Part shown: positions 41,929-47,637 of the stretch, one piece after another
Position numbering within the stretch: the stretch's first letter is position 1
Layout: every line of letters begins with the position of its first letter
Assembly: GCA_020629695.1 (NCBI GenBank)
Contig: JAHDCV010000001.1
Coordinates: 52,591-116,590, forward strand
Source: Acidimicrobiales bacterium
GTDB lineage: Bacteria > Actinomycetota > Acidimicrobiia > Acidimicrobiales > SZUA-35
Length of the DNA stretch: 64,000 nt
Direction of reading: 5' to 3'
The notes under the pieces: generated by a model
Seen by the model: only the letters and a program-made list of their open reading frames with translations
Database searches by the model: none
Told to the model about the DNA's origin: nothing
Translations under genes and position numbers: made by a program

Positions 41929-43296
41929 TCAGTTCGGGGCGAGCACGCCGCGCGCCATCTCGGTGTAGCTGTCGAGCTGGTCCGAGAGCGCCTCGGACGA
42001 GGCGGGTTTGCCGAAGCGGTACCCCTGGGCCAGATCGACGGCGGTCGAGCGGAGGACCTCCGCCTGTGCATCGGTCTCGACTCCTTCGGCCACGACGTAA
42101 CAACCGAGGTCGTGGGCCAACCGGGTCAACCCGTTCACGAGGATCCGATCCTCGTCGGCGAGGCCGAGGCCTCCGATCAGGACACGGGGCAGACGGACCA
42201 CGTCGAAGCGGCAGCGCCGCAGCAGGTCGGCCGAACCGAAGCCCAGGCCGAAGTCCTCCAGGGCGATACCGACACCTTCGGTCTTGAGCGGGGCGAGCAC
42301 CGGCCAGAGGCTGGCGATGTGGGGTCCGGCGGTCCGACCGTTCAGGTCGAGCAGGAGCTGGGTCGGCCGGAGGCCGTACTGGTCGAGCACGCTCAGCACC
42401 TGGGTCCGGAACTCCGGCGACAGGACGAACCCGACGTCCAGGTTGATCGCCCCGAGCAGGCTCGGGTTGCCGAGCCGGCGGGACCAGACGCTGATCTGGG
42501 CCGCGGTCTCACGCAGGATCCACAGATGCAGTGGGACCGAGACGGGGGACGAGCGCAGCACATCGAGGAAGGCGCCGGGGCGCACCAGTTCGGCACCGAG
42601 CGGACCACCGTCGGGATCGAGCCATCGGAGCATCGACTCGAAGCCGATGATCGTGCCGGACGTCATCGAGACGATCGGTTGGAAGTGCAGCTGGAACTCG
42701 TGGTTGTCGAACGCTCGCTGGAGGCGCACGGCCATCACCTCGGGGCGAGCGCGGAACGACAGGGTGTCCAGCCGGACGGCGACTTTGTCGCCGTCGCTGT
42801 AGCGGGCCTCGGCGAGCGAGCTCTCCGCATCGAGCATGAGGTCGCGGTGCGTCGCGTCGGGGGACGAGGACACCCCGCCGATGGCCAGGGTGATCGGCAC
42901 ACTGAAGCCGTCGAACGGCATCAACGGCGGCACGACGGCGAGCATCTCGTTGGCGACCTTGCGGACTTCCTCGGTCGTCAGCAGGCCCGGCCAGCAGACC
43001 GCGATCTCCGACCCGACGTATCGGGCGACGGTGCCGCGCCCGCCGATCGTCCTGACGAGCGCGTCGCTCAGACGCTGGAGTACGGAGTCACCGACGGCCG
43101 AGCCGTAGGCGGTGTTGATCTGTGCGAGGTTCGAGATCCCGATGAGGAACACCCCGAACCGGTCGCCGTTGCGACGCGTCCGGTGCAGCTCCTCCTCGAT
43201 CAACGCCTCGAACTGCCACCGATCCGGAAGGCCGGTGAGTGGGTCGAGCGTCTGCTCGATGGTCTCGTTGTCCTGTTCAGTGGGTCGACGGAACAC
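41929..43296 (-). CDS. GGDEF-EAL protein with degenerate motifs
   Basis: DPLTGLP, RYVGSEI, GFESMLRW, EDFGLG, AEGVET. Confidence 0.88.
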   Translation of the reverse strand: MFRRPTEQDNETIEQTLDPLTGLPDRWQFEALIEEELHRTRRNGDRFGVFLIGISNLAQINTAYGSAVGDSVLQRLSDALVRTIGGRGTVARYVGSEIAVCWPGLLTTEEVRKVANEMLAVVPPLMPFDGFSVPITLAIGGVSSSPDATHRDLMLDAESSLAEARYSDGDKVAVRLDTLSFRARPEVMAVRLQRAFDNHEFQLHFQPIVSMTSGTIIGFESMLRWLDPDGGPLGAELVRPGAFLDVLRSSPVSVPLHLWILRETAAQISVWSRRLGNPSLLGAINLDVGFVLSPEFRTQVLSVLDQYGLRPTQLLLDLNGRTAGPHIASLWPVLAPLKTEGVGIALEDFGLGFGSADLLRRCRFDVVRLPRVLIGGLGLADEDRILVNGLTRLAHDLGCYVVAEGVETDAQAEVLRSTAVDLAQGYRFGKPASSEALSDQLDSYTEMARGVLAPN

Positions 43297-44822: not shown

Positions 44823-46025
44823 ATGCGGGGAAAGCACCGAACCGGACGGCGTGCCGCGGGCGCGGCGATGGTGACGACGGCCCTGCTTCTGGCCGCCTGT
44901 AGCGCCGCCGACGGTGCCGACGTGGACGTGGCCGTCGCGACCTCCTCCCCACCGACGGTTCCCGAGACCGTGGCACCGACGTCGTCGACCTCGACCACGA
45001 CCGAACCGTCGACGACCACGACCGAACCCACGACCACCACGGCACCGCCGAACTTCGCCGACACCTATGAACTCGCCGCCTCCGGGGTCTTCCGGGTGGA
45101 CGCGACGTTCTGCTCCGGATTCGGATCGCAGGGCACGGCGTTCCGTGTCGGCGAGGACCTCGTCCTCTCGGCGGCGCACGTGACCTCCGACGCCGACATC
45201 GCCGCCCTGAGCCGCGACGACGGCACACGCTTCGACGCTGACGTGGTCGCGATCGACTATCTGGCCGACCTCGTCCTGCTCCGGGTCGCCGACGGCCTCG
45301 ACGGCCATGTCTTCGAGGTCGGCGACGACGGGATCCGCGTCGGTGACGAGGTCGCCGCACTCGGCCATCCCTCGGGCCTTCCGCTGACCTTCACCTCGGG
45401 CCGGTTGAGCCGGATCGGCGCCTTCTCCGGCGACATCCGGAACCATCAGACCGACACACCGATCAACCCCGGCAACTCGGGCGGGCCGCTGATCGACGAG
45501 TCGGGCCGCGTACTCGGGGTCGCGAGCTGGAAGCTGTTCGACACCGAAGGGCTGTCGTTCGTGGTCGCCGCCGACGAGATCCTCGAGTTCGTGTCCGAGC
45601 AGCCGGCGGCCGATCTCGAGTTCGTCGGATGTCGCCAGTTCGAACTCGACCCGACCGATCTCCTGGCCGTGGTGGAGACGCGGTTCGTGGAGTACTTCGA
45701 TCTGATCAACGCCGGCCGGGAGGGCGACGCCTTCGACGGCTATCTGTCGCAGCGGCTGACCGACGTGCAGAGCCGGGAACAGTTCGTGCTGGATCACTCC
45801 ACGACGATCATCAGCAACCTCGAGGTGTGGTCGGTCTGGGAGATCGACGAGGACACCGCCGGTGCGCTGGTGGCGTTCCGGTCGGAGCAGTCGGCCGAGT
45901 TCGGGTTCGAGGGTCAGACCTGCACGGACTGGTCGCTGAGCTATCGCCTCGTCGCATCCGACATCGGCTGGCTCATCGACAGCGCGACCAACGAGCCGGG
46001 CAGTCCAGCGGCCTGCCCCGCCTGA
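44823..46025 (+). CDS. trypsin-like serine protease lipoprotein
   Basis: Lipobox LAAC, Thr linker, SAAHV, DLVLL, GNSGGP; extra C-terminal domain. Confidence 0.88.
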   Translation: MRGKHRTGRRAAGAAMVTTALLLAACSAADGADVDVAVATSSPPTVPETVAPTSSTSTTTEPSTTTTEPTTTTAPPNFADTYELAASGVFRVDATFCSGFGSQGTAFRVGEDLVLSAAHVTSDADIAALSRDDGTRFDADVVAIDYLADLVLLRVADGLDGHVFEVGDDGIRVGDEVAALGHPSGLPLTFTSGRLSRIGAFSGDIRNHQTDTPINPGNSGGPLIDESGRVLGVASWKLFDTEGLSFVVAADEILEFVSEQPAADLEFVGCRQFELDPTDLLAVVETRFVEYFDLINAGREGDAFDGYLSQRLTDVQSREQFVLDHSTTIISNLEVWSVWEIDEDTAGALVAFRSEQSAEFGFEGQTCTDWSLSYRLVASDIGWLIDSATNEPGSPAACPA

Positions 46026-46141
46026 AACCGGCTCGCAACAACACCGAGCCGGGCAGTCCAGCGGCCTGCCCCGCCTGAAACCGGCTCGCAACAACACCGA
46101 GCCGGGCAGTCCAGCGGCCTGCCCCGCCTGAAACCGGCTCG
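45992..46141. repeat. 53-bp-period tandem repeat, three palindromic 44-bp cores
   Basis: CGAGCCGG..CCGGCTCG cores start at 45992, 46045 and 46098, joined by identical CAACAACAC. Confidence 0.95.
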
Positions 46142-46155
46142 TCGTGGGTGATCCC

Positions 46156-46335
46156 TCAGGCTTTGAGCGCGACGAGCGCCTCGCGTACGGGCACGGGCTG
46201 GCCGTCAGCGAGGAACTGGACGTTGCCGTTCTTGAGCATCTCGGCCTGCTCGTCCCGGGTGAGCATCTTCCATTCGAGGATGGAGCCCAGCACGAACCCT
46301 CCCTGTCGGCGGAAGGCCACCTGGTCGACGGTCAC
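46156..46335 (-). CDS. 59-aa hypothetical protein coupled to amt
   Basis: GTG overlaps the amt TGA (GTGA); MTVDQVAFRRQGGFVLGSILEWKMLTRDEQAEMLKNGNVQFLADGQPVPVREALVALKA; GC-rich third positions; not in the ORF track. Confidence 0.7.
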   Translation of the reverse strand: MTVDQVAFRRQGGFVLGSILEWKMLTRDEQAEMLKNGNVQFLADGQPVPVREALVALKA

Positions 46336-47600
46336 AGAAGTGCTTCCAACTCATCCGAGGTGAGCACTTCGCGCTCCGCCTCACGTTCGACTCGGTTGGC
46401 GATGCTCGAGCCACGCAGCTCTTCGTTGGGCGAGACCCGCAAGCCGAGGAAGCGACGGAGGAGGCCGGCGACGATCAGGCCGCTGATGATCACGAACCCG
46501 CCCGAGGCGAGCAGACCGACGACCTGGATCTGGATCTGATAGAGGAAGCCGTTGTCGAATGTTCCGGCCGGAGCCACGAACGGCACGGCGAGCGTGCCGA
46601 GGCTTCCGGCGACGAGGTGCACGGGGATCGCGTTGAGGGCGTCGTCGACCTTGGCGGTGTTGAGCAGCCAGTTCGAGGAGATCATGTAGACCGCACCGGC
46701 GACCCCGCCGAGGACGATGGCTCGGGGCACGGTGGCGACATCCGCACTCGCGGTGATGGAGACGAGGCCGGACAACGCTCCGCCCACCATGGGGTCGATC
46801 ATGTCGGTGCGGCGGCCCTGTCGGGCCCATGCCCAGAAGAAGGCGCCGACCAGACCGGCACAGGCAGACAGGTTGGTCACGAGGATGATCCGTGGCACCG
46901 ACGCGCTGAGTGCGAGCGTCGATGCACCGTTGAACCCGAACCAACCGAGCCACAGCAGCATCGTGCCCAACACGGTGAGCGACGGGTTGGTCTGCTCGAA
47001 GTCGCGGGGCACACCGTCGGAGGAGAAGCGGCCGAGGCGGGGACCGACCATCAACACACCGACGAGGGCGAAGGCGCCACCCGTGACGTGCACGACGGTC
47101 GAGCCGGCGAAGTCATAGAACCCGAGCGCCGCGAGGAAGCCGACCGACTCACCCGACAGCAGCCCACCCCACGTCCAGTGACCGACGATCGGGTAGACGA
47201 TCGCACCGAGGGTGAGGGTCAGGATGACGTAGCTGGAGAACGAGATGCGCTCCACGAGCGAACCGGACACGATCGTGGCGGTGGTGCCGGCGAAGGCGAG
47301 CTGGAACACCATGAAGGTGTACGGGTTGATCGACCCTTCGGCGGTGGCGATCCCGTCGAGCGCACCGAAGAAGTTGGAGAGTCCGATCAGCCCACCGACG
47401 GAGTCGCCGAACATCAGGGCGAAACCGAACATCGAATACACGAGACCGACCAACGCCCAGTCGATCGCGTTCTTCATGGCGACAGCCACGGCATGGGCTG
47501 GCCGGGCCTGTCCGACTTCGAAGAGCAGGAAGCCCGGCTGCATGAGGAACACCAGCACAGCGCCCGTGAGCACCCAGAGGTCGTCGGAAGTCAGCTCCAT
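46332..47600 (-). CDS. amt: ammonium transporter (Amt family)
   Basis: MQPGF, FQLAFA, HWTWGG, DFAGSTVVH, WFGFNGAS, DDALNAIPVH, LRVSPNEE. Confidence 0.95.
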   Translation of the reverse strand: MELTSDDLWVLTGAVLVFLMQPGFLLFEVGQARPAHAVAVAMKNAIDWALVGLVYSMFGFALMFGDSVGGLIGLSNFFGALDGIATAEGSINPYTFMVFQLAFAGTTATIVSGSLVERISFSSYVILTLTLGAIVYPIVGHWTWGGLLSGESVGFLAALGFYDFAGSTVVHVTGGAFALVGVLMVGPRLGRFSSDGVPRDFEQTNPSLTVLGTMLLWLGWFGFNGASTLALSASVPRIILVTNLSACAGLVGAFFWAWARQGRRTDMIDPMVGGALSGLVSITASADVATVPRAIVLGGVAGAVYMISSNWLLNTAKVDDALNAIPVHLVAGSLGTLAVPFVAPAGTFDNGFLYQIQIQVVGLLASGGFVIISGLIVAGLLRRFLGLRVSPNEELRGSSIANRVEREAEREVLTSDELEALL

Positions 47601-47610
47601 GGCTCTGCCC

Positions 47611-47637
47611 ATCGGCACAATCGATCCCGAGTTTGAG
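47611..47637 (-). promoter_or_regulatory. putative FliA/WhiG (sigma28)-type promoter of amt
   Basis: CTCA-N17-GCCGAT, 10 nt upstream of the ATG. Confidence 0.55.

Follow-up and report, generated by a model that had tools for sequence, protein, structure and literature searches.

A small partner protein coupled or fused to ammonium transporters in a sensor-rich branch of the Amt family

Within a 64,000-nt window of an Acidimicrobiales genome, we found an amt gene that is translationally coupled to a gene for a 59-aa partner protein. The gene pair is conserved in three phyla, as separate genes and as in-frame fusions; its Amt clade sits among signalling fusions in the Amt tree, and its pore and N1/N2 ligand residues are intact. 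This Amt-plus-partner module of the sensor branch is real and apparently undescribed, since no account of such a pair was found in the literature searched, outside which most subscription papers fell. The reading to which we give about even credence is that of a split ammonium receptor whose adaptor is the small protein and which was recruited locally into a WhiG regulon; we infer the steps of its mechanism from the evidence below.

The amt gene and its coupled partner

The source genome (4.17 Mb, 69% GC, 96.9% complete) contains three amt genes, and the one considered here (Table 1) encodes a protein with the marks of the Amt/Mep/Rh family: a PF00909 match, the Trp/Ser site (Trp144/Ser227), the Phe gate (Phe103/Phe223) and the twin His (His171, His328). 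Residue alignment thereby bore out the claim of the initial annotation that the channel motifs are complete, both His residues included. Close homologues are labelled Actinomycetota by their sources. An alternative upstream ATG at 47612, which the promoter element overlaps, would give a protein of 426 aa; a homologue that is 83% identical (P0003) begins at the Met equivalent to the ATG at 47600.

Table 1. Features of the amt-partner module, in positions of the window
Feature	Position	Strand	Remarks
amt, 422 aa	46332..47600	minus	PF00909, E 9.8e-96; N1/N2-type (cluster 2) Amt of the partner-linked clade
C-terminal tail of the amt product, starting GLRVSP	46335..46445	minus	linker and acidic amphipathic helix
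acidic helix VLTSDELEALL, C-terminal end of Amt	46335..46367	minus	
59-aa partner gene, GTG start	46156..46335	minus	translationally coupled, GTGA overlap; homologues, model and Amt fusions
promoter element	47611..47637	minus	-35 CTCAA (47637-47633), 16-nt spacer, -10 GCCGAT (47616-47611)
three 53-nt direct (tandem) repeats	45989..46147	.	between the convergent protease gene and the partner gene

The module is flanked by a convergent gene for a trypsin-like protease and a divergent P450 gene, and a GGDEF-EAL gene lies 3 kb away (41929-43296, minus strand). The 53-nt repeats start within the protease gene, at its 3′ end, and their core is unique to this site in the genome; the stretch is possibly a terminator region. 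No P-II gene lies beside the module amt, as the initial annotation had observed, and the glnK-amtB adjacency of canonical transporters is thus absent here. The sole P-II/glnK gene found adjoins another amt, on contig C13, so that a separate amt-glnK pair does exist. With two further amt genes in the genome, one of them with glnK, the module amt is not the sole amtB, and uptake can be covered without it.

The start of the 59-aa ORF and the amt stop overlap by 4 nt, and the codon composition of the ORF resembles that of genes (GC 0.75/0.36/0.90 by codon position). The overlap and the existence of fused forms might suggest an incidental ORF or a frameshifted piece of amt, a reading that is in practice refuted: the split state occurs at 19 loci in three phyla, the fused forms branch from within the split ones, and contigs from two studies (runs X4, X5 and X6, the first of them from the study of the possible source runs) show no indel where the amt stop meets the partner start. 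The small ORF first noticed at the amt stop is instead a conserved gene, with three library proteins at 84-95% identity and a homologue directly downstream in 12/12 of the closest amt loci (11 genomes of the taxonomic family). A partner profile matched in 11 of 61 genomes, always beside a clade amt, a count in which the positives hold by construction and the absences are informative. In the protein library it gathered 181 cluster representatives at E<=0.001, mostly of 60-90 aa, a few of the matches listed being unrelated repeats.

AlphaFold2 predicts a compact hairpin-helix-helix-hairpin-helix for the partner (pLDDT 92.5). Comparison with Pfam, NCBIfam and PDB sequences gave no consistent match, and the ESM Atlas gave no usable one; Foldseek returned nothing at E<=0.001, and the best VIA comparison reached Z 3.5 (rmsd 3.6, 46 aligned). 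By these comparisons the partner is a member of an uncatalogued ~60-aa family, although absent matches do not prove a new fold. In six loci of the taxonomic family (L011, L012, L015, L017, L018 and L032), the partner domain opens a protein of ~200 aa. These long partners continue into a second uncatalogued domain of ~120 aa (the P0139 family); the model of a 208-aa long partner (pLDDT 90.4) had no viral match, with a best Z of 3.2. Homologues of 465-480 aa, considered as amt-partner fusions, were rejected, their extra length being N-terminal and the domain present in 0/119.

Distribution, fusions and phylogenetic position

In 33 of the 40 genomic copies examined, the partner domain is either fused to a clade amt or encoded directly downstream of one: 12/12 in the taxonomic family, 19/21 in the Cytophagales sample, 1/4 in the Myxococcota sample and 1/3 in one genome of the same class (G569), as found with profiles that were seeded from amt-linked copies. 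The other seven have no amt within 1.5 kb. Among 251 genomes of Cytophagales, the order of Flammeovirga, 21 copies turned up in 17 genomes, comprising 13 clean C-terminal fusions to Amt, one frameshifted locus, five genes directly downstream of a clade amt and two copies without amt. A sample of 251 Myxococcota genomes yielded four copies, whereas among 400 genomes of the module's own class only G569 carries the domain, in three copies; a further scan of a contig collection covered ~1/64 of it. The co-occurrence of Amt and small ORF is thus conserved across three phyla.

The 13 in-frame fusions include proteins of Flammeovirga sp. EKP202, OC4 and SJP92 and of F. aprica, and in 11 of the 13 the protein stops shortly after the domain and includes no enzyme. 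At L144 and L146 the order is Amt-domain-SpoIIE, which places the partner domain between the membrane part and an output enzyme. Other architectures join the domain to PilZ (L153) or follow TetR (P0240). In Flammeovirga SJP92 (L038:3954-9106), two tandem Amt-partner fusions are followed by a likely outer-membrane beta-barrel gene, identified by eye.

An HDOD gene follows the partner copy at L150, copies at L152 and L156 adjoin PilZ genes, and a divergent GGDEF-EAL gene is found at L164; altogether, three of the seven amt-less copies adjoin or are fused to PilZ genes. Such neighbours, and the RsiG-like gene described below, would fit a partner that is itself an end effector or a nucleotide-binding module (for c-di-GMP, for instance) controlling Amt from inside. 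We consider this improbable, as the neighbourhood support comes from few loci and the partner alignment shows no known nucleotide-binding motif. Among the neighbours scanned (46 of 165 called, plus three short loci), there is no conserved output gene next to the Amt-partner pair, no recurring set of nitrogen-assimilation genes and, apart from amt and the genes just named, no neighbour of wide recurrence; a gene for NAD-glutamate dehydrogenase does lie upstream at one Myxococcota locus. Three genomes, which belong to two genera, have a DivIVA-like gene upstream of the pair in divergent orientation (L165, L166 and L167), with a Pfam match in L165 only.

Phylogenies of Amt, one of the checks proposed by the initial annotation, placed the module amt in a sensor-rich branch, among Amt-kinase, Amt-GGDEF and Amt-MCP fusions. 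In a 126-sequence FastTree, 32/32 partner-linked Amts are monophyletic (SH 0.995), and the 61-tip group around them (0.95) takes in all 24 long relatives and 0/30 glnK-linked Amts; 23 of these 24 long relatives carry kinase, GGDEF/EAL, MCP, PAS or SpoIIE domains. An IQ-TREE of 46 sequences, 13 of them partner-linked, recovered the clade (UFBoot 100) as sister to two HisKA_3 fusions (UFBoot 99), in a group with 11/12 sampled fusions (UFBoot 97). Both trees exclude the frameshifted L138 and sequences of <330 aa, and L055, labelled a fusion, shows no domain. Because the 13 fused Amts form one nested subclade, they point to a single fusion event, and the split state looks ancestral. The best PDB sequence matches are the ammonium receptors Ks-Amt5 (272.7 bits) and Sd-Amt1 (258.6), against 154.9 for Af-Amt1 and 122.1 for EcAmtB, although the matches included no cluster-2 transporter structure for comparison.

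The ligand residues of the N1/N2 sites (Q21, E28, N44, D47, T109 and S112) and the Lys/Tyr switch pair (K43/Y124), whose roles are described in the available text of PMC11152129, are present in 32/32 clade members. All N1/N2 residues also occur in the genome's own glnK-paired Amt, and a relaxed signature occurs in 20/30 glnK-linked Amts; being common to sensors and transporters, they are not diagnostic and do not prove sensing, and we rejected them as a marker of sensors. The strict receptor signature, QX6EX15NX2D(F/T)X54-60TX2(S/T), is matched by 11/24 long fusions and 0/32 clade members, the module Amt having Trp48 at the F/T position, a clade-specific residue found in 19/19 split forms. A second clade-specific residue, Gly273 (29/32, against Asn in 67/67 other unfused Amts), stands where Sd-Amt1 has its exit-narrowing Asn269. 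Gly in place of Asn could favour transport, and cluster 2 includes proven transporters (PMC11152129, available text).

These residues bear on the main rival to a receptor: a working Amt channel, for uptake or release, which the partner gates from the cytoplasmic side as a substitute for GlnK. The intact pore, Gly273, the 11 enzyme-less fusions, the loss of the canonical C-terminal region (below) without an adjacent glnK, and the glutamate dehydrogenase gene at the Myxococcota locus are all in keeping with gating, for which there is a precedent in the 61-aa sP36 that binds AmtB1 in Methanosarcina (PMC10714827, as far as its available text goes). It sits less well with the position of the clade among signalling fusions, with the SpoIIE, PilZ and TetR architectures, with a promoter here of WhiG rather than nitrogen type, and with the lack of recurring nitrogen-assimilation genes among the scanned neighbours. 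We regard gating as a substantial possibility, though not a probable one.

Amt tail, promoter and motility genes

The initial annotation described the C-terminal tail of the Amt as atypical, and this extends to the clade: the canonical G-x-D-xx-E-H motif is found in 0/119 clade tails, a looser pattern occurring in 50/50 control Amts, and an acidic helix takes its place except in the fusions. The acidic amphipathic pattern, which was written after seeing the tails, matches 92/118 homologue tails versus 0/50 other unfused Amts. Tail type follows partner type, with the helix in 12/13 short-partner pairs, WPY in 6/6 long-partner pairs and neither in the 13 fusions. Such co-variation, here among groups that are kin, would be expected of a docking tether. 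A predicted complex of tail (37 aa) and partner (59 aa) scored 0.17 against a mark of 0.32, with no control complexes folded, a score that speaks neither for nor against binding.

The promoter claimed for amt, of sigma-28 type and 10 nt before the ATG, stood up as a sequence match. The element, CTCAA-N16-GCCGAT (or CTCA-N17-GCCGAT), is separated from the ATG at 47600 by 10 nt and matches exactly, within 200 nt of the start, the WhiG consensus XT(C/A)AX-N16-GCCGA as given in the available text of PMC13595943. FliA/WhiG profiles match two genes in the genome over the cut-off and a third in the flagellar cluster, and the short distance to the start makes a leaderless or near-leaderless amt transcript likely. 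A plus-strand ORF on another contig (C47:14480-15106) has the motif ExxxSxxRxxxQxxxD, which we take to be RsiG-like.

By itself the element is not beyond chance, since the pattern is frequent (41 exact occurrences in the genome) and CTCA-Nk-GCCGA[TC] has no genome-wide peak at k=17 (85 versus up to 108). The motif becomes significant once tied to a start codon: TCAA-Nk-GCCGA[TC]-N8-13-start has 19 and 22 matches at k=15 and 16, versus 0-12 at the 18 other spacings. Allowing a degenerate -35 makes the spacing peak less marked (90 and 84 versus 17-61). A WhiG-type element lies 8-14 nt before the start of 30/3411 gene-like ORFs, and precedes fliM, TadE-like genes and regulators, most of them identified by eye. 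Genome-wide, there are ~66 candidate WhiG-type promoters 8-12 nt before start codons, some of which will be chance; this set suggests a largely leaderless sigma-28 regulon of Tad genes, fliM, regulators and large secreted proteins. Among relatives, the expected co-occurrence of promoter and module held in part: in the three short-form genes (L008, L014 and L016), all from flagellated genomes, exactly 10 nt separate the -10 box from the start, but the strict motif is found at only 2/12 loci of the taxonomic family (L008 and L032). The sigma-28 link is therefore lineage-specific; such control is plausible here but lies outside the conserved core, which is Amt and partner.

A complete-looking flagellar cluster with four flagellins is spread over contigs C22 (L158:190-15697) and C68 (L160), so that of the motility genes the initial annotation had pointed to, sigma-28 and flagella are present; searches of this genome, which is ~97% complete, found neither a CheA dimer domain nor CheW or MCP. 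The FliM (L158:6567-7523) is divergent and lacks the N-terminal CheY-binding peptide. An apparent absence of FliM based on PF02154, in the source genome and with none over the cut-off in 11 carriers, was set aside as misleading, given the divergent FliM and the flagellar cluster; because PF02154 misses such proteins, we tallied flagellin instead, which was found in 4/11 carrier genomes of the taxonomic family. CheW was found in 2/11, and several relatives have flagellin and no CheW. Amt-MCP fusions occur in genomes of the same taxonomic family (L019, L033 and L035); at L035 the start of the fusion gene is preceded, at 9-10 nt, by a strict WhiG element.

From these genes and the tail, a direct route from ammonium to the flagellar motor or chemotaxis, by way of a FliM-mimicking tail that binds CheY, appears unlikely. 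In its favour, the module tail matches 4/8 fixed positions of the FliM motif LSQxEIDxLL, and the genome is flagellated, with a WhiG-type element before fliM too and two or more receivers that appear to be single-domain; flagella occur in each of the three short-form carriers, and the related Amt-MCP fusions would fit as well. Yet the strict motif is found in 0/119 clade tails and a relaxed form, which the module tail does match, in 4/119; the Gln position of the motif is occupied by Asp/Glu, and its Asp position varies. Judged from this alignment, the FliM likeness is local drift, and the tail is not FliM-like as had been supposed. Nor was direct wiring of Amt to chemotaxis supported, in view of the missing CheA, CheW and MCP, a FliM without the CheY-binding peptide, and carriers of which 7/11 show no flagellin.

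Proposed mechanism and comparison with known systems

In the split receptor that we favour, NH4+ would pass the His pair, bind N1/N2 and shift the Amt C-terminus, by analogy with Ks-Amt5 and Sd-Amt1. The co-variation of tail and partner suggests that the acidic helix would tether the partner and be dispensable after fusion. The 59-aa partner, which likely relays the ammonium signal and probably bypasses the chemotaxis machinery in doing so, would pass the state on to a switch with a gene of its own, for which proteins of c-di-GMP signalling or of the PP2C/partner-switching kind are the likeliest candidates; this is the least secure step of the series. In this lineage, WhiG-type sigma-28 likely transcribes the module with flagellar, Tad-pilus and signalling genes, and through such co-transcription the module would inform a motile/sessile decision without CheA-CheY.

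We favour this reading because of the amt linkage (33/40), the 13 fusions and the SpoIIE, PilZ and TetR architectures, and because the clade lies among signalling fusions, keeps N1/N2 in 32/32, has a tail that tracks the partner and coexists with other amt genes for uptake. This support is bounded by the amt-seeded profiles, the post hoc tail pattern and the non-independence of related sequences. Weighing against a receptor are the non-diagnostic N1/N2 residues, the missed strict signature, Gly273, the transporters of cluster 2, a single fusion event, the amt-less copies (7/40), the lack of a conserved output gene and a strict promoter at 2/12 loci. More tentatively, and with doubt, one may imagine a class of non-covalent ammonium receptors in which Amt shed its enzyme and signals from its tail helix through an adaptor of unrecognised fold to SpoIIE, PilZ, TetR or HDOD outputs; under a c-di-GMP-controlled WhiG switch, in flagellated actinobacteria without chemotaxis, external ammonium would then bear on whether cells swim or attach.

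Several known systems resemble the module in part. Its promoter shares consensus and spacing with the WhiG2-RsiG c-di-GMP regulons of Actinomycetota (PMC13595943, available text), and the genome likewise has FliA/WhiG matches, an RsiG-like ORF, and TadE-like, fliM and regulator genes that bear the element. That work, whose regulon search was limited to well-sampled genera, names no ammonium transporter in its main text or in the three supplement files searched. The tail resembles the CheY-binding FliM peptide (PMC5677366, in its available part) as an acidic amphipathic helix ending in LL; it differs in being C-terminal, and the key Gln and Asp columns are not conserved across the clade. With the glnK-amtB pair the module has in common an amt coupled to a small soluble gene; here, however, the partner is not P-II, the canonical C-terminal motif is absent and glnK lies elsewhere. 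Closer in size is sP36 of Methanosarcina mazei, also a soluble protein of ~60 aa that acts on an Amt, which the available text of PMC10714827 describes as bridging AmtB1 and GlnK1, mainly in Methanosarcinia and Halobacteria. The module partner, set apart from sP36 by this description rather than by sequence, goes with an Amt clade that lacks GlnK and to which it is coupled or fused.

The nearest relatives of known function are Ks-Amt5 (Amt-histidine kinase, PDB 6EU6) and Sd-Amt1 (Amt-HAMP-GGDEF, PDB 8QJ3; PMC11152129, available text), the best solved-structure matches, with which the module Amt shares the pore residues and N1/N2 ligands; a separate amt-glnK pair is also kept in this genome. 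Unlike them, it has no fused transducer, a defining feature of ammonium receptors (AmR) that appears, as SpoIIE, only in the relatives L144 and L146; it stops after 422 aa in an acidic terminal helix, next to a separate 59-aa protein, with Trp at the F/T position and Gly in place of Asn269. Both characterised ammonium receptors have fused enzymes, the known Amt regulators are GlnK and sP36, and many single-domain Amts have the sensing site and no known output (PMC11152129, available text). The partner-linked clade, which adds a small, predicted well-folded domain family with no catalogued relative, is a concrete candidate for unfused Amt signalling, or for gating without GlnK, and makes the question testable, with the partner split or fused in actinobacteria and in named, cultured Bacteroidota such as Flammeovirga.
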